Shown here: one piece after another, positions 2,857 through 54,958 of the stretch
Layout: every line of letters begins with the position of its first letter
Numbering within the stretch: position 1 is the stretch's first letter
Assembly (NCBI GenBank): GCA_963721525.1
Contig: CAVRJL010000006.1
Coordinates: 1 to 64,000 of the forward strand
Length of the DNA stretch: 64,000 nucleotides
Direction of reading: 5' to 3'
From: an uncultured Negativicutes bacterium
GTDB taxonomy: Bacteria > Bacillota > Negativicutes > JBAXTZ01
The notes under the pieces: generated by a model
What the model was told of the DNA's origin: nothing
The model's input: the letters and a program-made list of their open reading frames with translations, nothing else
The model's database searches: none
Position numbers and translations under genes: made by a program

Positions 2857-2894
2857 TGTGTAACTCTACCTCTTTAGATAAAAATTTTCGCTTC

Positions 2895-3092
2895 TATTTG
2901 GTTGACCTGGTTTTTTACCCCACACTCGCCTGCTGGAAAATTCGCTACTCGTTAATAACTTTCACTACTACTTCTCTCGTATTGATTTACGGCAGGGCTT
3001 ACCCCAAAGCCGCACCATGCTCACAGCTTCAACTGCTTACGTGGACTGTTTCGCCTGCGACTAGCATCAGCTTTCAACCACAAACCCAAATA
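2895..3092 (-). ncRNA. raiA motif RNA
   Basis: GC-rich island matching the conserved raiA blocks: GGTTGAAAG, AGTCGCAGGC, TCCACGTAAG, GAGCATGGTGCGGC, GTAAG.CCTGCCG, TCCAGCAGGCGAGTGTGGGG, ACCAGGTCAAC. The two ends can pair. Confidence 0.9.
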
Positions 3093-3105
3093 TCTGCTAG
3101 AAGAC

Positions 3106-21060: not shown

Positions 21061-21077
21061 AATTAACCACCTTCGTT

Positions 21078-21200
21078 AGCCTCCGAGGTTAGCTGACGGG
21101 TTAGGGCGGAAGGCGCCCCGACTATTTTATAGTCTTTACCCCTATCATTAAATAAATTTAATGACATTCTTATCCCCCGTACCTTGAATAGGATTAAGCT
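21078..21200 (-). promoter_or_regulatory. c-di-AMP (ydaO/yuaA) riboswitch
   Basis: GCTTAATCC...GGTACGGGGGA...GGGGTAAA...CCCTAACCCGTCAGCTAACCTCGGAGGC, directly upstream of a cell-wall hydrolase. Confidence 0.9.
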
Positions 21201-21226
21201 TTCTTTATAATTTAATATTTAAACTT

Positions 21227-37413: not shown

Positions 37414-38628
37414 CTAAATATTATTTATTTTAGTATGAGATTTTTGTAATTTTAGTACTCCATACGGACAAACATGAATACATAATGAGCATCCATCACA
37501 GATTTCATTATTAATAGATATTTCTCCATCTATGAATTGTATAGCCGCTTGGCCGCTTTCCGAGCACGAAATAAGGCATTTAGCGCATTTTGTACATTTA
37601 TCTGGATTAATAACAGCAGCGCGCACAGGCCACAACATATTTAATTTTTCACGAGCTATAATTTTAGGGACAGCTTTACCAGTTATGTCTAGTAAATTAA
37701 TTATATTTTTCTTCTCTACATATTCTTCTAATCCTTTTAAAAGAGAGGTAATAATTTGATAACCACTAAGCATAACTTCTGTACATATTTGTACAGAACT
37801 TGAGCCAACTGCGTAGTGTTCTATAATATCTTGCCATTTAGATATACCGCCGATTCCAATAATCGGTACATTAACTGCTTGAGCTATTTGTGCAACGCAA
37901 CGTAGGGCTATCGGCTTAATTGCTCTCCCGGAATATCCCCCTAATGTTGAATGTCCATCAACTGTAGGTAAAGGTTCAAATGTATCAATATTTATTCCAA
38001 TTAGTCCTTGTGTTGTATTTATTGCAGCAATTGCATCTGTACCAGCCTCCACTACAGCTTTAGCCATATTTTGGATATAACTAATATTTGGAGTAAGTTT
38101 GGCAATTATCGGAATTCTTACTACTTTTTTTACCCAAGAAATAATCTGTGCTGAATTTTCTACATCTTTACCAACAGCTGCTCCCATAGCATTATCTAAA
38201 CGAAAATGTGGGCAAGATAAATTTATTTCTAAAGCATCTGCTCCAGCTTTTTCCATCCGCATTGCTAAATTTTGCCATGGTTCACGATTAACCTCAGCAA
38301 TAATACTTGCAATAACAACTTTATTTGGAAATTCACTTTTAAGCTCACGTATAGTTTTTTCCCAGTATTCACTAGGTTTTCTTGTTATACCTTCGAAATT
38401 AGCGAACCCTAAAATATCTTCATCTGTTCCTCGAATAACTCCAAATCTGTTAGGAGATTCATTTGTTAATAAATAATTTGACGCACAGGTTTTAGTAGAA
38501 ACACCTGCCCATCCTAATTTAAAAGCTTTTGCTATCCCTTCTTTGCTTTGAGTTGGAGATGCAGATGCCAAAATACAAGGATTTTCTAGTTCAATATTAC
38601 AGAATCGTACTCCTAATCTTGTACTCAT
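37414..38628 (-). CDS. preA: Dihydropyrimidine dehydrogenase subunit PreA
   Basis: LEINLSCPH, KLTPN, AINT, GGYSG.AIKP.AL and two C-terminal 4Fe-4S motifs. Confidence 0.9.
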   Translation of the reverse strand: MSTRLGVRFCNIELENPCILASASPTQSKEGIAKAFKLGWAGVSTKTCASNYLLTNESPNRFGVIRGTDEDILGFANFEGITRKPSEYWEKTIRELKSEFPNKVVIASIIAEVNREPWQNLAMRMEKAGADALEINLSCPHFRLDNAMGAAVGKDVENSAQIISWVKKVVRIPIIAKLTPNISYIQNMAKAVVEAGTDAIAAINTTQGLIGINIDTFEPLPTVDGHSTLGGYSGRAIKPIALRCVAQIAQAVNVPIIGIGGISKWQDIIEHYAVGSSSVQICTEVMLSGYQIITSLLKGLEEYVEKKNIINLLDITGKAVPKIIAREKLNMLWPVRAAVINPDKCTKCAKCLISCSESGQAAIQFIDGEISINNEICDGCSLCIHVCPYGVLKLQKSHTKINNI

Positions 38629-38689
38629 ATCTTATTCCCTTCTATCTTAATTAGTTTTATAGCGGATATAGCTATTATTCTTCATAATA

Positions 38690-39432
38690 TTAAAAATTAA
38701 GTTCTTTTTTTATTTCATATATTTGAATTATAAATGTTGCTGTTAAGATGGCAACTCCTCCAATAATCTGCAATCTTTCCATTAGTTCTCCTAGTGTTAT
38801 AAAAGCAATAATAGCTGCAATTACAGGTTCAATTGCAGCTGTTATTGCTACATTCGTAGGCGGTAAATAATGTACTCCTACATAAAATAGGCTATAGGGT
38901 AATAACGTATAACAAATTATTACATAAACATACATCCATAAAGGTACGATGGTAATATTTTGCCAATTTATTGATACAGGTACAAATAAATAAATTAAAG
39001 ATGCAAATAAGAAAGAATAAAAAATAATTGTAAATGGCTTGTATTTTTTACTAAGAGATTTACTTTTTAAAATATTGAAAGAATATAAAATTGCGCTCAT
39101 TATACCAATTGCTATCCCAAAATTATTTAATGTGCTAAAAGAATATGATGAAATCATCAGTAATCCGCCAAATCCTATAATTCCTAAAAATACAAAATGA
39201 ATACCATCTTTATAATATATTTTAAAACATTTCGGAACAAAAATCCCAAGTATAAAAAATAATATAATAGTTGTTCCTATTAAACGAATTTTTAACAAAA
39301 CTAAAGGATTTATTCCACATTTGTAAATATATTTTGTAACAGATCCGCCTCCACCTAACATTATAGTAGCTACTACTATTGCTACATACCCTATTATAGA
39401 GTTATTTTTAATAAAGCTAATTTTCTTATCAT
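38690..39432 (-). pseudogene. EamA/DMT transporter, apparently frameshifted at the 5' end and internally shortened
   Basis: EPVIAAI.A...LGE.....QIIGG motif. The ATG overlapping the upstream TGA is out of frame with the body, and the ORF is short for a two-repeat EamA. Confidence 0.55.
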
Positions 39433-40688
39433 CTTGTATAACTATTCCCTAAACCATAGCTTATAATTTTATCAACTAATCTCATAAAAGCTCGAACTGC
39501 TGTTTCTATATTATCATCTGAAGTATTTTCCTCTTTGCAATGGGATAACCCTCGTTCAGACATTACGAACATCATAACTGTGGGCAGTATCTTAGACATT
39601 TCAGCTGCGTCATGTAATGGACCAGAATAAATTGTTGTTCTTTCACCAGTTTCTTCCACTACTGCTTCTTTACAATATTCAACTAATTTCGAATCAAATA
39701 TAGTAGGATCAATAGTCCAAATTTTTTCCCATACGGCTTTGACTGAATATTCTTTAGCAGCTATTTCTACAGCTTTTCTAGCTTCTTCATTCATTAATAA
39801 CAATTTACTTTTATCAATAGAACGCTGGTCAAGAGAAATAATACAACTTTCCGGGACAATAGTTACTATATCTGGTCTTATAGCTACTTTGCCCACAGTA
39901 CATACTCCCTCGTACTTTAAAGCTATTTCTCTGAAAGCTAGAGCCGACTGTGCTGCTGCCAAAAATGCATCTTGTCTTAATAAGGTTGGAAATGATCCGG
40001 CATGCGCAGCTTGTCCTTCAAATTTAATATAATATCTTTCCACTCCAGTTATTCCATAAACACAGGCAATAGTTTTTTTATTGCTTTCTAATATAGGTCC
40101 TTGCTCAATATGTAATTCCGCAAAACCCAATCCTTTTCTTTTCTTAAATTGAGTATGTGCGTTCTCTATAGTATTTAAGTTGACACCATATTCAGCTAAA
40201 ACCTCTCCAATCTTATATCCGTTATTGTCAATTCTATGGATAATTTCACGTATATCTAATGTACCGCTTGCTGCCGATGACCCCATTAAACTACGACCAA
40301 AACGTGCTCCTTCTTCATCAGCCCAATTTACTGCATAAATAGTTTTTTTCGGACGAATTCTACTATATCTCTTAATGACTTCAAGCGCAGTGACTGCCCC
40401 TAAAGAACCATCTAGCCAACCGCCATTAGGAACACAATCAATATGGCTTCCGATTATAATAGATTCTACTGTTTCTCCAGTTAATTTTGCCCATGTATTT
40501 CCCGCTGCATCAATTGTTACCTTAGCTCCATATGATGTAGCTTTATTTGCAAACCAATTACGTGCTTTTTGCCAAACGGGAGTCCAAGCTACTCGTTGAG
40601 CTCCATATTCGTTCGAAGTTAACTCAGCTAGTTCACGTAAGTTAATAATTACATTTTTGCCTGCATTGATTAAAGAATCTTTTTTCAT
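39429..40688 (-). CDS. M20 Zn-dependent N-carbamoyl-amino-acid hydrolase (beta-ureidopropionase-like)
   Basis: GSHIDCVPNGGWLDG, DEEGARF, ELHIEQGP, HAG, HDA and SHCKEE motifs. Confidence 0.88.
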   Translation of the reverse strand: MKKDSLINAGKNVIINLRELAELTSNEYGAQRVAWTPVWQKARNWFANKATSYGAKVTIDAAGNTWAKLTGETVESIIIGSHIDCVPNGGWLDGSLGAVTALEVIKRYSRIRPKKTIYAVNWADEEGARFGRSLMGSSAASGTLDIREIIHRIDNNGYKIGEVLAEYGVNLNTIENAHTQFKKRKGLGFAELHIEQGPILESNKKTIACVYGITGVERYYIKFEGQAAHAGSFPTLLRQDAFLAAAQSALAFREIALKYEGVCTVGKVAIRPDIVTIVPESCIISLDQRSIDKSKLLLMNEEARKAVEIAAKEYSVKAVWEKIWTIDPTIFDSKLVEYCKEAVVEETGERTTIYSGPLHDAAEMSKILPTVMMFVMSERGLSHCKEENTSDDNIETAVRAFMRLVDKIISYGLGNSYTR

Positions 40689-40709
40689 TATTTCCTCTCA
40701 TTCTTAATT

Positions 40710-42092
40710 TTATGATATTTTCGAACGATAAATAAACTTACCTTCTGGTTGCGTCAAAACTAACTTACCTTTTTCTACTATATGTTTTCCGCCTAAAAAA
40801 ACATGTTCAATCGATCCTTTTTGTATAAAACCTTCATACGGTGTATAATCTACCGTTTGATGTAAATCTTTTACAGAAATTATCCTCGTTCCTTGAGGGT
40901 TATATATGATAATATCAGCGTCTGTGCCGATAGCAATTGTTCCTTTTTTTGGAGCAAGTCCAAAGGTAACTGCAGAATTATATGAAGTTAGTTTCACAAA
41001 TTGATTTAAAGAAAGTTTTCCAGTACATACTCCTTCTGTATACATTAAAGCAAATCGAGTTTCAATTCCAGGTATACCATTAGGTATAGTACGAAAGTCC
41101 GTATAGTCAGCTATTTTTTGATCAACAAAATTGAATGAACAATGATCTGTAGCAATAATATCGATTAAATCATTTTGTAATGCCTTCCATAAAATTTTAT
41201 TATCTCTTCTTTTACGTAAGGGTGGAGACATAACAAATTTTGCCCCTTCTATTCCAGGTGCAATGTAACGTGAATCATCTAATAATAAATATTGCGGACA
41301 AGTTTCTAAGTATACTTTTTGCCCATTTTGCCTTGCTTTAAGGGCTATATTTAAACCTTTAGCTGAACTAAGATGTACTATATATAGTGGGGCTTTTGCT
41401 ATACAAGCAATTGTTATTGCTCTTGATATTGACTCTGCTTCGAGATCATCTGGTCTAGTTAAGGCGTGGTAAATAGGATCATTTTGTCCTTTAGAAATTG
41501 CTTCTTTTATTAAGGCATTGATAATATCTCCATTTTCGCAATGTACTCCTACTAATATTCCGGATTGGCGAGCTGTTTTAAATATTTTATACATTGTTTC
41601 GTCTTCGATTTGAAATAAATTTTTGTATGCTAAAAATAATTTTATCGTAGATACCCCTGTTGTTTTAGGCAAAGTTTTAATTTCTTCCACAACCTCATTA
41701 TTACAATCAGTTATTGCTACATGGAACGCATAATCGGTAAAACATTTACCTGCAGCGCGCATATGCCAACTATCTATTGCTTGTTGTAAACTTTGTCCCT
41801 TTTTTTGTAAAGAAAAGTCAATAATAGTAGTTACACCGCCCATAATTGCAGCTTTCGTACCGGTAAAAAAATCATCACTTGTTGTTACATTTTCAAAAGG
41901 CATATCCAAATGAGTATGAGGATCAATTGTTCCAGGAAATAAATAATTGCCCAAAGCATTTATTGTCCTCGCATTATCATCTAACAAATCAATGCCTATT
42001 TGGCTTATTTTTTCGTTTTCAATTAATACGTCCGCTTTTACAACATCGCTGGCTGTAACTATTGTCCCATTTTTGATTAAAAATCTCATCAC
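40710..42092 (-). CDS. hydA: Dihydropyrimidinase / D-hydantoinase
   Basis: IDPHTHL, KLFLAY, VHCENG, VHLS, ETCPQYL, SPPLR and TDHC motifs. Confidence 0.93.
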   Translation of the reverse strand: MMRFLIKNGTIVTASDVVKADVLIENEKISQIGIDLLDDNARTINALGNYLFPGTIDPHTHLDMPFENVTTSDDFFTGTKAAIMGGVTTIIDFSLQKKGQSLQQAIDSWHMRAAGKCFTDYAFHVAITDCNNEVVEEIKTLPKTTGVSTIKLFLAYKNLFQIEDETMYKIFKTARQSGILVGVHCENGDIINALIKEAISKGQNDPIYHALTRPDDLEAESISRAITIACIAKAPLYIVHLSSAKGLNIALKARQNGQKVYLETCPQYLLLDDSRYIAPGIEGAKFVMSPPLRKRRDNKILWKALQNDLIDIIATDHCSFNFVDQKIADYTDFRTIPNGIPGIETRFALMYTEGVCTGKLSLNQFVKLTSYNSAVTFGLAPKKGTIAIGTDADIIIYNPQGTRIISVKDLHQTVDYTPYEGFIQKGSIEHVFLGGKHIVEKGKLVLTQPEGKFIYRSKIS

Positions 42093-44485: not shown

Positions 44486-45613
44486 TTACTCTTCTTTTAT
44501 AAACCAACTAAATAAAAACGCCATCAAAGGTAGCCACATTAAAAAAATAAAAACAGTAGTTACATCATAACAGTCTGCAATTTTACCTAGTAATATTGTT
44601 GCTCCAGCTCCCATTCCCATAGAAAGACCCATAGTAAGAGCTGAAGCAGTGGCAATTTTATTGGGCATAAGTTTTTGCGATATTACAATTAAGCTTGTCC
44701 ATGCAGCAGCCATTAAACTATTATTTAAAATTATCAAAAAACAGGATAAATATAATGACGAATTTAAAAATAAAAATATTAGTAATGTTGAAGGCAAAGT
44801 TGTCCAAAGAATCACTTTTCTACTGCTAAATTTATCTGTGAACACTCCACCAAGATAGGTACCTATCATTCCAGAAAGTTGAGATAGCGCTAGTATTAAC
44901 CCACCAAATGATTCATTTTGTCCTCTATAAGCTATAAGATACATTGGTAAAAAAGCTAACACTCCTGAAATTATAAACGAACGTAAAAATAACACCATTA
45001 GAACCATTAATAAAGAGATAACTATTTTACGACCTATAATAGCTTTAGGATATTGTAAATTTATTTTTGACATTGATTTCGCTGCTTTTAATAATGGTAA
45101 AAATAATAACAAAGAAGGTAAACAAAAAATAAATTCCAAATTTATTTTTTTACTTAGAAATATGCCCATTATTAACGAACCTAATGCTGAACCAACAAAC
45201 CCACCTAATGTAAATAATCCTATACCTTTGCCAGTATTTTTACCACTGAAATAGTTAGCGCAGCGCGCTCCTTCTGGATGAAAAACTGAGCTTCCTATTC
45301 CGGAAAAAATAATCCATAAAAAAACCGCATAATAATTTTTAACATATATGCACATTAGAAAACCTATTACAGATATTAAACAACCTAACGGCATATATAT
45401 AGACTGATGTTTTCTATCGCTTAAAACCCCAAATATTGGTTGACTGATAGAACCTGTTATCCAAAATACCATAGGCAAAAAAGACATTTGCGCAAAATTC
45501 AAGCCAAATTTATTTTTAAAATAAGGTAAAGCTATTAACAGAGCTCCACTTGGAATATCAACCACTAAATGGCCTAAAGCCAGTATCCAAACTTTATAAG
45601 ATATTTTATTCAT
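44486..45613 (-). CDS. MFS transporter (Fsr-like)
   Basis: LGHLVVD, QPIFGVLSDR and FHPEG motifs; about 12 hydrophobic segments. Confidence 0.85.
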   Translation of the reverse strand: MNKISYKVWILALGHLVVDIPSGALLIALPYFKNKFGLNFAQMSFLPMVFWITGSISQPIFGVLSDRKHQSIYMPLGCLISVIGFLMCIYVKNYYAVFLWIIFSGIGSSVFHPEGARCANYFSGKNTGKGIGLFTLGGFVGSALGSLIMGIFLSKKINLEFIFCLPSLLLFLPLLKAAKSMSKINLQYPKAIIGRKIVISLLMVLMVLFLRSFIISGVLAFLPMYLIAYRGQNESFGGLILALSQLSGMIGTYLGGVFTDKFSSRKVILWTTLPSTLLIFLFLNSSLYLSCFLIILNNSLMAAAWTSLIVISQKLMPNKIATASALTMGLSMGMGAGATILLGKIADCYDVTTVFIFLMWLPLMAFLFSWFIKEE

Positions 45614-45670: not shown

Positions 45671-45783
45671 AAAAAAAGAAAACCGGCGTTCGCCGGCTTT
45701 AATTCTTATATCCGCACAGTAAATCATCCTCCCCACTTTCGTCCTTCGCCAACAGACGACACTCCCAATGCTTTACTGTTTCA
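45671..45783 (-). promoter_or_regulatory. Structured leader with terminator; unassigned riboswitch/attenuator candidate
   Basis: GC-rich island: ACAGTAAA/TTTACTGT stem, inner TCGTCT/GGACGA stem, then the terminator GCCGGCG-AA-CGCCGGT with TTTCTTTTTTT. Confidence 0.65.
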
Positions 45784-45788
45784 AGTTT

Positions 45789-45817
45789 ATTATAATAGTT
45801 TTGATAAAATTATTCAA
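45789..45817 (-). promoter_or_regulatory. SigA promoter of the MFS leader
   Basis: TTGAAT-17 nt-TATAAT directly before the leader. Confidence 0.6.
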
Positions 45818-45833
45818 GTAATGCAAAAAAACT

Positions 45834-47030
45834 TCATAAATTTTTTTGTAGTTTAAAAGCCTTAATTAACTCAGGTATAACCTCAAACAAATTTCCTACT
45901 ATTCCATAGTTAGCTACTTTAAATATTGGAGCATCAGAATCTTTATTTATAGCTACAATAATGTCTGAACTTCTCATACCTGCGATATGTTGTATTGCTC
46001 CGCTAATTCCGCAAGCAAAGTATATTTTTGGACTTACAGTTTTTCCAGTTTGCCCTATCTGTTGAAATGAAGGTATCCAACCAGCATCTACGACAGCACG
46101 ACTTGCTCCTACAACTCCACCTAGTACACTGGCTAACTCTTTTAATAAAATAAAATTTTCTTGCAATTGCAATCCTCTGCCACCTGCCACAATTATTTTA
46201 GCTTCTTCTAGATTACAATTTACTTCATTGTTTTTTATAGTTTTTATAATTTTTGTTTTTAAATCTTTTTCTTCTACGGTTGTTTTAAATTTTATAATTT
46301 TACCTACTTTTGTAAAATCTTCTTGAGGCTTTTTAAATACTTTAGGGCGAATTGTTCCCATTTGCGGACGATGATGCGGACAAATAATTGTTGCCATAAC
46401 ATTTCCGCCAAAAGCAGGACGTGTCCATTCAACAAGTCTTTTGTCCATATCGATACTTAAATTAGTACAATCTGCAGTAAGACCGGTGCTTACTCTACAA
46501 GCAATACGAGGGCCTAAATCACGGCCATCAGGTGTTGCTCCCAATAATATAACCGAAGGGTTATTTTCTTTAATAAGGTCTACAAACGCTTTAGTATAAG
46601 TATCTGTTGAATATTGTGTAAAAATTTTATCTTCAATTAAATATACTTTATCTGCACCATTGGCAAAAATATTTGTACAAAGGTTTGCGACATCATTCCC
46701 TATCAATACTCCACATAATCCTGTTTTTAAATAGCTAGCAAGTTTACTCCCTTCTCCAAGCAATTCTAATGATACATCTTTTATTTTATTCTCAAAATGT
46801 TCTATATAAATCCATATATCTTTATAGTTATTTATATTTACCGCACCAAATATTTCTTCTTCTTCTCGTAAAATTGCTTTTTGAGGACATACATTAATGC
46901 AAAGACCGCATACTGTACAACTTTCTCCTATTATAGGCTTGCAATCTACCATGTGTATCGCGGAAAAAGGACATTGATTTACACACAAACCACATCCTAC
47001 ACATTTCTCTTCAATCACCTTTACTGCCAT
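45834..47030 (-). CDS. etfA: Electron transfer flavoprotein alpha subunit with N-terminal 2x[4Fe-4S] domain
   Basis: CVGCGLC...CP and CTVCGLC...CP; GLTADCT, RPAFGGN, QIGQTGK and GISGAIQH. Confidence 0.95.
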   Translation of the reverse strand: MAVKVIEEKCVGCGLCVNQCPFSAIHMVDCKPIIGESCTVCGLCINVCPQKAILREEEEIFGAVNINNYKDIWIYIEHFENKIKDVSLELLGEGSKLASYLKTGLCGVLIGNDVANLCTNIFANGADKVYLIEDKIFTQYSTDTYTKAFVDLIKENNPSVILLGATPDGRDLGPRIACRVSTGLTADCTNLSIDMDKRLVEWTRPAFGGNVMATIICPHHRPQMGTIRPKVFKKPQEDFTKVGKIIKFKTTVEEKDLKTKIIKTIKNNEVNCNLEEAKIIVAGGRGLQLQENFILLKELASVLGGVVGASRAVVDAGWIPSFQQIGQTGKTVSPKIYFACGISGAIQHIAGMRSSDIIVAINKDSDAPIFKVANYGIVGNLFEVIPELIKAFKLQKNL

Positions 47031-47040
47031 ATTTCCTCCT

Positions 47041-47829
47041 CTATCCGCAAGCTTTGCAAAGCATTTCAACTAACATTTTTGCTGCTGTTTCTGCAGTTTC
47101 ACCGCTAATTATTTTACCCTGTCCTCTTTGTTCGGGAGTAAAAATATTTCTAACTTGCGTAGGGCTTCCTATTAAACCTAATCGTTTAAAATTGACATCT
47201 AACCCCTTTGCAGTAATAACTTCAATGCTTTCTTTCTTAAGTGCTTTTAGGCAACCCCAAACATTTCCTGTGCGTGGTTCATTTAAAGATTTCACTGCCG
47301 TTAGTAAAACAGGAATTTTTACTTCAACTACTTCAAAATAGTCATCTTGTTCTCTATAAACATGTAATAATTTTGTATCTTTTATTTCAATTTTTGCTAC
47401 ATAAGTAACCTGGGGAATACCAAGATATTCTGCTATTTCTGGCCCTACTTGTGCGGTATCTCCATCAATAGCCTGTTTACCGCAAAATACTATATCAAAA
47501 GAACCTAACTTCTCTATAGCTTTAGATAAAATATAACTTGTAGCTAATGTATCCGATCCGCTAAATTTTCTATCCGAAACTAAGACTGCTCTATCCGCCC
47601 CCATAACAATACATTCTTTTAACGCTTCTGCTGCTTGGGGTGGTCCCATTGTTATAACTGTTACATTTCCTCCACATTGCTCTTTTATTTTCAATGCTCC
47701 TTCTAAAGCATGTTTATCAAAAGGGTTTACAATACTTGGTACACCCTGTCTTATAAGAGTATTTGTTGTAGAATCAATGCGTACCTCTGTAGTATCAGGT
47801 ACTTGTTTTATACATACAATCATATTCAT
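47041..47829 (-). CDS. etfB: Electron transfer flavoprotein beta subunit
   Basis: VCIKQVPDT, NPFD, GKQAIDGDTAQVGP and GSPTQV motifs. Confidence 0.95.
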   Translation of the reverse strand: MNMIVCIKQVPDTTEVRIDSTTNTLIRQGVPSIVNPFDKHALEGALKIKEQCGGNVTVITMGPPQAAEALKECIVMGADRAVLVSDRKFSGSDTLATSYILSKAIEKLGSFDIVFCGKQAIDGDTAQVGPEIAEYLGIPQVTYVAKIEIKDTKLLHVYREQDDYFEVVEVKIPVLLTAVKSLNEPRTGNVWGCLKALKKESIEVITAKGLDVNFKRLGLIGSPTQVRNIFTPEQRGQGKIISGETAETAAKMLVEMLCKACG

Positions 47830-47847
47830 AACATAAATCCCTCTCAA

Positions 47848-48984
47848 TCATTTCAACATAGCGTTTGCTACTATTATACGCTGAATTTGGTTTGTGCCTT
47901 CATATATTTGCGTGATTTTCGCATTACGCATTAATCTCTCCACTGGATATTCACGACTATATCCATAGCCACCTAATATTTGTATCGCATTACTTGTAAT
48001 TTCCATTGCTACATCTGAGGCATACATTTTTGCCATAGCACTTTCTTTAGAAAATGGCAATCCATTATCTTTAAGCCATGCCGCCCTATATACCATTATT
48101 CGTGCTGCATCTGTTTTTGTTTGCATATCAGCTAACATGAAAGATATTGCTTGATTAGAAGCTATAGGCTTACCAAATTGACAACGAGTTTTAGCATAAC
48201 TCACAGCATGATCAACTGCAGCTTGAGCTATACCTACAGCTTGAGATGCAATCCCAATCCTGCCCCCATCCAAAGACGCCATAGCTATTTTAAACCCTTG
48301 ACCTTCTTTGCCAAGTAAATTTTTTTTAGAAATACAACAATTTTGAAATACTAATTCCATAGTAATAGATGTATTTATTCCCATTTTATGTTCACGTTTC
48401 CCGAAAGTAAAACCTGGCGTCCCTTTTTCTACAACAAAAGCAGAAATTCCTCTAATTCCTTTTGCTTTATTAGTCATAGCAATTACTATATAAGTTTCTG
48501 CCTCACCACCGTTTGTTATGAAAATTTTATTTCCATTTAAAACATATTCATCACCAACTAAAATAGCAGTTGTTTCTTGAGCACTAGCATCGCTACCTGC
48601 ATTGGCTTCAGTCAACCCAAAGGCTCCTAAATTTTTTCCTTCGCAAATAGGTATTAAATACTTTTGTTTTTGATTTTCAGTTCCATAAATAAATATTGGC
48701 CATGCACATAATGAGGTAGCCCCTATAGCTAAACATGTGCCATCATCATATTTACTTAATTCTTCATTAGCTATTATATAACTTAGATAATTTGCGTTAG
48801 CACCACCATATTCTTTTGGAAACGGCAAAGCTTGAACTCCTAATTTTAGCATTTCATTAACAAGATGACGATTAAATTCTTGTTTTTCATCACGCTCGAC
48901 AATAGTAGGAGCTAATTTTTTTTCTGCAAACTCTTTGCAAAGTTTTTTAATTAATATTTGCTCTTCTGTAAATCTAAAATCCAT
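47848..48984 (-). CDS. bcd: Short-chain acyl-CoA dehydrogenase (Bcd-like)
   Basis: FGLTEANAGSD, KIFITN, LDGGRIGIA, GGYGY and KITQIYEGT motifs. Confidence 0.9.
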   Translation of the reverse strand: MDFRFTEEQILIKKLCKEFAEKKLAPTIVERDEKQEFNRHLVNEMLKLGVQALPFPKEYGGANANYLSYIIANEELSKYDDGTCLAIGATSLCAWPIFIYGTENQKQKYLIPICEGKNLGAFGLTEANAGSDASAQETTAILVGDEYVLNGNKIFITNGGEAETYIVIAMTNKAKGIRGISAFVVEKGTPGFTFGKREHKMGINTSITMELVFQNCCISKKNLLGKEGQGFKIAMASLDGGRIGIASQAVGIAQAAVDHAVSYAKTRCQFGKPIASNQAISFMLADMQTKTDAARIMVYRAAWLKDNGLPFSKESAMAKMYASDVAMEITSNAIQILGGYGYSREYPVERLMRNAKITQIYEGTNQIQRIIVANAMLK

Positions 48985-54581: not shown

Positions 54582-54934
54582 TGCGTAAGCATGAAAGATA
54601 ATCGCAGATAAATCTGAGGAAAGTCCGAACTCCAAAGGGCAGAATGCCGGATAACATCCGGCGAGAGTAATCTCAGGGAAAGTGCCACAGAAATGTGTAC
54701 CGCCTTCGTTAAAGAAGGTAAGGGTGAAACGGTGCGGTAAGGGCGCACCAGCGACAAAGTAATTTGTTGGCTAGGTAAACCCCATTCGGAGCAAGACTAA
54801 ATAGGGAAGAAAAGACGTTGCCCGCAGATCTTCCGGGTTAGTCGCTGGAACTGTATGGTAACATATAGTCAAGATAAATGATTATCGCCACTTATTTAAG
54901 TGGAACAGAACTCGGCTTAATGATTGCTTACGTA
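54582..54934 (+). ncRNA. rnpB: RNase P RNA (class A-like)
   Basis: GAGGAAAGTCC, AGTGCCACAGAAA, GGTAAACCCC and AACAGAACTCGGCTTA; terminal helix TGCGTAAGCA/TGCTTACGTA. Confidence 0.97.
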
Positions 54935-54958
54935 TAAGTGACCTTATTATTAATTTTA

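Follow-up and report, generated by a model that had tools for sequence, protein, structure and literature searches.

To our knowledge, few RNAs with G-rich seeds are known in Firmicutes, namely RosA and RsaI. RosA of B. subtilis is a stand-alone RNA of ~229 nt, transcribed from a sigma-A promoter, bounded by a terminator and regulated by CcpA; it has three G-rich regions, and its single-stranded G-rich regions bind C-rich sRNAs, as described in PMC8216469. With RosA and with RsaI (RsaOG) of S. aureus, the RNA described here shares, according to that source, the stand-alone organization, the sigma-A promoter, the intrinsic terminator, a lineage-restricted occurrence within Firmicutes and single-stranded G-rich regions. 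It differs from RosA in that it consists of one rod of ~65-75 nt followed by a terminator, with no match to an Rfam sRNA. The other obvious comparison is with terminator-embedded aptamers. PMC7736828 describes the guanidine-IV riboswitch (GGAM-1) as having highly conserved nucleotides, a pseudoknot to the terminator and a consistent position 5' of coding genes of the sugE type. Our element resembles guanidine-IV and HMP-PP (PMC8632094) in that its hairpin precedes an intrinsic terminator and in that, within the source genome's own family, loop and terminator could pair.

We analysed an element on the minus strand of a 64,000-nt stretch (the window) of a 769-kb Negativicutes genome (G000; 16 contigs, 31% GC, 81% complete; family f1, together with G001 and G002). 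A first-pass annotation of the window had read the element as an undescribed, riboswitch-like attenuator of the downstream gene for a transporter of the major facilitator superfamily (MFS). The features are as follows.

45789..45817, minus strand: sigma-A-type promoter, with -35 TTGAAT at 45817-45812, a spacer of 17 and -10 TATAAT at 45794-45789
45671..45783, minus strand: predicted small RNA of ~110 nt, placed from the -10 spacing and the terminator
45716..45779, minus strand: rod-like hairpin of 64 nt, computed fold
45779-45767 paired with 45728-45716, minus strand: basal helix P1, drifted towards A/U through compensatory changes
45739..45759, minus strand: apical stem P2, 6 bp here and 10-16 bp in homologues
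45753-45745, minus strand: G-rich terminal loop of 9 nt at the tip of P2
45729..45738, minus strand: G-rich 3' bulge resembling a Shine-Dalgarno sequence, with GGNGG or GGGG in 31/34 distinct homologues
45714, minus strand: invariant C two bases after P1, in 34/34 distinct homologues
45671..45700, minus strand: intrinsic terminator, hairpin 45700-45679 and U tract, with the same core stem in G001 and G002
44486..45613, minus strand: MFS_1 transporter gene, Fsr-like, ~60 nt 3' of the terminator

The layout claimed by the first-pass annotation was borne out. The promoter is followed by a leader that is GC-rich for this AT-eroded genome (the hairpin has 48% GC, the intergenic DNA on either side 15-17% and the genome as a whole 31%), and the MFE and centroid folds both show the long helix, the internal loop, the apical stem and the 9-nt loop. 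Folding stability is beyond that of most shuffled sequences, with z -2.07 for the hairpin (6/200 shuffles as good) and z -2.21 for hairpin plus terminator (4/200). The predicted RNA would start near 45783-45782 and end in the U tract. The ORF at 45613-44486 carries an MFS_1 domain, and one relative, at 35% identity, goes by the name 'FSR family fosmidomycin resistance protein-like MFS transporter', in agreement with the assignment given earlier.

The first-pass annotation noted that the element lacks the defining motifs of ZTP, THF and T-box, and none of these three matched in the window even at E<=10. With Rfam 15, no match in the window at this element reached its gathering score; eight matches at E<=10 between 45300 and 46100 were all far below their cut-offs, and the element in 19 homologous loci gave no credible match (none at E<=1). 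ZTP, THF and T-box have only short strings in common with the element (UGGCGAA, GGGGAG and UGGGA..UGUCGUC, as given in the first-pass annotation), and these strings are not conserved among homologues. A full-text literature search returned no description of such an RNA in the texts it covered, while supplements with motif lists or collections outside Rfam could hold one; taxon terms likewise had no match in the main text of PMC11109978 or in one supplement of PMC8632094. The RNA thus apparently represents an uncatalogued, lineage-restricted family of structured sRNAs without an Rfam match.

Homologous leaders were sought at MFS genes. Across 41 genomes, MFS relatives were found at 30 loci; an obvious homologous leader was present in G001 and G002 (50% protein identity), and none was seen by eye at the other loci. 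The MFS relative of G023 (46% identity) has no RNA leader. A protein-led metagenome scan yielded 28 loci, among them one close MFS relative and no new leader. A first covariance model, built from the three f1 sequences, picked up a further six loci, spread over three additional families, and the model obtained after two rounds (R3) matched 35 of 151 sampled genomes of the class at E<1e-7, in eight families, a count that overstates independence because the carriers are related and 15 of the 35 loci belong to one family. Carriage is complete in f1 (3/3, including G000), f6 (15/15), f10 (4/4), f11 (4/4), f18 (2/2) and f21 (1/1), partial in f25 (5/8) and f26 (1/3), and nil in other families of the class such as f12 (0/22) and f17 (0/21); in one further order, 14 of 40 genomes matched. 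Outside the class, 147 genomes of the phylum gave no credible match, the four weak ones (E 1.5e-4 to 0.014) all lying within ORFs. Weak in-class matches to R3 in G047, G048 and G078 proved to be coding sequence or a plain hairpin, and weak matches to R1 (L092, L099-L104) were coding or unrelated.

When 185,579 species genomes were scanned for an exact pattern, 30 matches were obtained, 15 of which score at least 31 bits with R2; these records are titled Pelosinus (9), Propionispora, Sporomusaceae, 'Negativicutes bacterium', 'Bacillota bacterium', uncultured bacterium and, once, 'Patescibacteria group'. Some of these loci duplicate those of the genome search and were left out of the homologue counts. 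The remaining 15 were rejected: 14 had no score at E<=0.01, and L141 is weak, overlaps an ORF and lacks both promoter and terminator. A degenerate pattern of the apical stem-loop (2 mismatches, 61 genomes) stayed at background level, not above the reversed control, and the single match of the P1 pattern in viral contigs falls within a coding region. The RNA is near-universal in several families, and as these contain genera that can be cultured (Pelosinus, Propionispora), it is directly testable. The record titled 'Patescibacteria group' (L130) bears a full-scoring copy of this Negativicutes RNA and is possibly mis-titled or mis-binned.

The comparison of homologues shows that the element is a genuine RNA with a conserved structure. 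All copies fold into a rod in which an asymmetric internal loop separates P1 (9-15 bp) from P2 (10-16 bp, 6 in G000) and a short loop caps P2. Both sides changed in 17 of the 19 model pairs across 23 distinct sequences, a value reached in 0/500 shuffles and far above that of slid controls; as this alignment was fitted to the model, a plain MAFFT alignment served as an independent check and showed compensatory changes in 8 of 10 P1 pairs. Covariation in the helices is strong; it tolerates G-U pairs and is strand-specific. In alignment A6, P2 was fitted to a 6-bp model and its real length is understated there; its length range is narrow (mostly 11-15 bp), while its sequence varies freely. The loop sequences vary as well. 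The conserved part is the basal helix, with a motif in its 5' strand kept in 32 of 34 distinct homologues.

The window copy is the most eroded one. In P1, three G-C pairs that hardly vary elsewhere are replaced, with both partners changed, by A-U or U-A, and one pair is broken; P2 has lost its lower half. This bears on the purine-rich internal loop reported earlier: the loop is present in the computed fold, yet it is partly peculiar to the window copy, since P2 has 6 bp there and 10-16 bp at the other 34 loci. Because the lower half of P2 is missing, the aptamer-like loop amounts to the conserved G-bulge plus an unzipped stem. The retention of the basal stem through compensatory changes, in a heavily reduced, AT-drifted genome of 769 kb and 31% GC with neither Hfq nor CsrA detectable, points to real selection.

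Is this RNA a leader or a gene of its own? A -10-like box lies 8-10 nt before P1 in 34/34 loci with upstream sequence, compared with 8% at shifted control positions, and 26 of these 34 have an extended TG. Downstream, a hairpin with U tract is found in 33 of 35 loci, although the script applied loose thresholds to terminators and some of the f10 and f11 assignments are open to doubt; predicted RNA lengths are mostly 109-131 nt. The following ORF is in sense orientation in 16 of the 35 loci (one call, L097, being probably a spurious ORF), convergent in 16 and absent within ~1.5 kb in three. The neighbours belong to families as diverse as PHP, HNOB, DUF3870, DUF7674, NrdD-like, PQ-loop, NIR_SIR, laccase-like, CitX/CitG, MatE and acetokinase, an MFS gene stands next to the RNA only in f1, and the genes on the 5' side are likewise unrelated to one another, several families having a divergent one there. 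The RNA homologues share no conserved reading frame. Promoter, rod and terminator thus travel as one single-copy unit amid unrelated genes, which is the pattern of a stand-alone sRNA and not of a cis-regulator. With its own -10 box, its own terminator, variable flanks and no conserved frame, the element is, as judged from sequence comparison, most likely a Negativicutes gene for a stand-alone small RNA, with a predicted transcript of ~110 nt.

Two observations on locus organization may be added. In f21 (L109:1668-2087), the RNA lies just 3' of a cluster of five tRNAs and keeps its own extended -10. In f6 and f10 (L094, L106, L108, L110-L125), NIR_SIR-like and HNOB-domain genes occur near the RNA in differing order and orientation, which hints at an ancestral locus.

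It could be argued that no independent transcript exists and that the element is a structure at the 3' end of the preceding mRNA, an attenuator working through a leader peptide, or an element of the DNA. Contigs from four RNA runs cover the element at a Pelosinus locus and, in three of the four, run from the upstream gene into it, past the predicted start; they matched that locus at shares of 0.04-0.13 only and, being assembled contigs throughout, show neither ends nor strand. The f1 bulge moreover contains a start codon with a similar frame. A leader peptide was nevertheless rejected, as no peptide is conserved across families, and the unrelated and in several families divergent upstream genes, the universal -10 box at fixed spacing and the strand-specific, G-U-tolerant covariation all speak against this explanation, which we regard as very improbable.

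As for a riboswitch or cis-attenuator, the RNA is not consistently 5' of related same-strand genes, and a competing antiterminator is found only in f1 (3/3). Guanidine-IV in particular was dismissed, its conserved nucleotides and terminator pseudoknot having no conserved counterpart here: loops and terminators vary independently, pairing between them is not conserved, the next gene is often convergent, and no sugE-type gene occurs among the neighbours scanned. The proposal of a variant or undescribed cis-regulatory RNA therefore stands in so far as there is a real conserved structure without an Rfam family, while riboswitch-like control of the MFS gene finds no support in neighbours that are unrelated or convergent. 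Overall, the riboswitch reading is largely not supported, and the locus illustrates that an eroded sRNA 5' of a transporter gene can mimic an orphan riboswitch.

A narrower version would confine the switch to f1, where a terminator-gated MFS leader could operate alongside another role of the RNA, its UUGGCG loop invading the 3' arm of the terminator. The pairing suggested in the first-pass annotation is indeed computed for the window copy (6 pairs, -8.1 kcal/mol) and kept in all three f1 genomes, where the RNA precedes the MFS gene and, despite the drift of P1, neither the core of the loop nor that of the terminator has changed. Cognate duplexes of loop and 3' arm reach -6.1, -6.1 and -8.1 kcal/mol, compared with non-cognate means of -3.8, -3.8 and -4.9 kcal/mol, and there is no strong separate MFS promoter: none in G002, one 9/12 candidate overlapping the terminator in G001 and one overlapping the start codon in the window. 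Across the RNA family, however, the pairing is not conserved, the cognate duplex being the better one in only 9 of 31 distinct pairs, with a mean of -2.7 compared with -3.7 kcal/mol for non-cognate ones and 0 to -1.9 kcal/mol in Pelosinus; combinations with the bulge and the 5' arm do no better (10, 13 and 15 of 31). Opening the terminator would cost ~12.7 kcal/mol in the G000 leader, linker length varies about threefold, invariant loop nucleotides of the aptamer type are absent, the next gene is convergent at 16 of the 35 loci, and the MFS relative of G023 manages without the RNA. Leaky read-through alone could account for MFS expression. Such gating in f1 is hence unlikely.

If the element is a gene of its own, the G-rich patches may carry its function. 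In 27 distinct cores, G makes up 69% of the loops and 65% of the 3' unpaired bases, compared with 31% of the helices. GGNGG or GGGG occurs in the bulge as listed above and in the terminal loop of 26 of the 34 distinct homologues, without a fixed sequence in either; loop and bulge together provide the two or more single-stranded G-rich regions that characterize RNAs of the RosA/RsaI type. In the mechanism that we propose, the RNA would be transcribed as a discrete molecule from its own promoter to its own terminator, the rod would display the terminal loop and the 3' bulge as two G-rich single-stranded patches, and these seeds would pair in trans with C-rich RNA, as RosA does. The central position of GGNGG accepts any base, and both patches are G-rich but not fixed in sequence, as would be expected if the pairing allows G-U wobbles. 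Taken as a whole, this reading of a stand-alone sRNA acting in trans on C-rich RNA has in our estimate a probability of roughly 0.4; granted a stand-alone sRNA, a pairing or decoy mechanism, argued by analogy, would have about even chances.

Searches for partners count against this mechanism, as none was found. RsaE/RoxS (RF01820) was found in 0/5 genomes, with B. subtilis as positive control, and a scan of G000 for seed complements produced no standout target. Hfq and CsrA had no match in G000 (81% complete) or G001 (97%). Sites resembling cre preceded the RNA in 2 of 33 promoters, compared with one in control windows (<=2 mismatches to the consensus), and so were not enriched. Pairing with the 3' tail of 16S rRNA exceeds that of shuffled seeds by only a small margin (-7.4 compared with -6.2 kcal/mol for the bulge, -6.6 compared with -6.0 kcal/mol for the loop). 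Finally, sequence conservation is highest in a helix; for an sRNA acting by base pairing alone this is unusual, and it counts against one.

This last point leads to the main competitor of the trans-pairing reading, in which the stand-alone sRNA serves as decoy or scaffold for a protein that reads either P1 with the invariant C or the G motif that recurs in loop and bulge, as two sites about one helical turn apart. The P1 motif (32/34) and the C at +2 (34/34 distinct homologues) exceed what pairing needs, the length of P2 is narrow, and the motif of the loop often resembles that of the bulge, even in the putative paralogue L167, where both appear changed to GGCAA. Yet no candidate protein emerged (CsrA and Hfq as above; TROVE/Ro60 in 0/5 genomes), GGA is not invariant in the loops, and the window copy has altered three P1 pairs that hardly vary elsewhere. 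We consider a protein decoy rather unlikely. A bolder combination, in our view quite improbable, is that of a rigid rod presenting Shine-Dalgarno-like G tracts at fixed spacing as a decoy, independent of Hfq and CsrA, for the anti-Shine-Dalgarno sequence of the 30S subunit or for a dedicated conserved factor, and thus of a new class with a near-housekeeping role. If true, such a decoy RNA would be important enough for compensatory retention in a 0.8-Mb genome, and in f1 it may double as a gate for the MFS gene.

Two-tier G-quadruplexes within a helix are known from Spinach-like RNAs. The internal loop might form such a structure and bind a small molecule or ion, either in trans or as a sensor; GGNGG or GGGG is present on both sides of the loop in 14 of 34 distinct homologues. 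It is missing from one side in the other 20, including all Pelosinus sequences, G001, G002 and the window copy, and we deem this reading highly improbable.

We also compared the trans-acting candidate with 6S, SRP, Y and CsrB/RsmZ RNAs, which resemble it in being stand-alone and rod-like or loop-displaying. SRP RNA is encoded at other loci in 5/5 genomes (in G000 at C15:39242-39426). 6S RNA, which is far longer, lies at other loci in 4/5 genomes, with none found in G000, and the element has no 6S score. A Y RNA is disfavoured by the lack of a Ro60/Rsr (TROVE) match in the five genomes, and a CsrB/RsmZ-type RNA by the lack of a CsrA match in G000 or G001 and of GGA from several loops.

The RNA is present once per genome, apart from the likely paralogue in G119 (L167:155-230; G119:C175; E 0.002), which has the same P1 and a terminator, with GGCAA replacing the G tracts in loop and 3' junction. 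At L166 (G012:C15:33945-34000), a perfect hairpin of ~19 bp directly follows a TATAAT; its 5' end resembles that of the RNA, it has no G-rich loop, and it is possibly a separate tiny transcript.

Parts of three contigs of G000 are GC-rich relative to the 31% bulk (C8, ~13-27 kb; C15, ~209-227 kb; C16, ~1-4.5 kb) and may be contamination, misjoins or recent imports; tmRNA was found in this genome. In the window, the genes directly upstream of the RNA (45834-48984, minus strand) encode an acyl-CoA dehydrogenase-like protein, an EtfB-like protein and an EtfA with an N-terminal ferredoxin-like domain; the order etfA-RNA-MFS is common to G000 and G001, and G002 has the same order with one inserted divergent ORF. 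A cluster for reductive pyrimidine degradation (dihydropyrimidinase, an amidase of the hydantoinase/carbamoylase family and PreA) occupies 37414-42092 on the minus strand. Elsewhere in the window, Rfam identifies raiA (2893-3094, minus strand), a c-di-AMP riboswitch (21063-21210, minus strand), RNase P (54585-54935, plus strand) and tRNAs.
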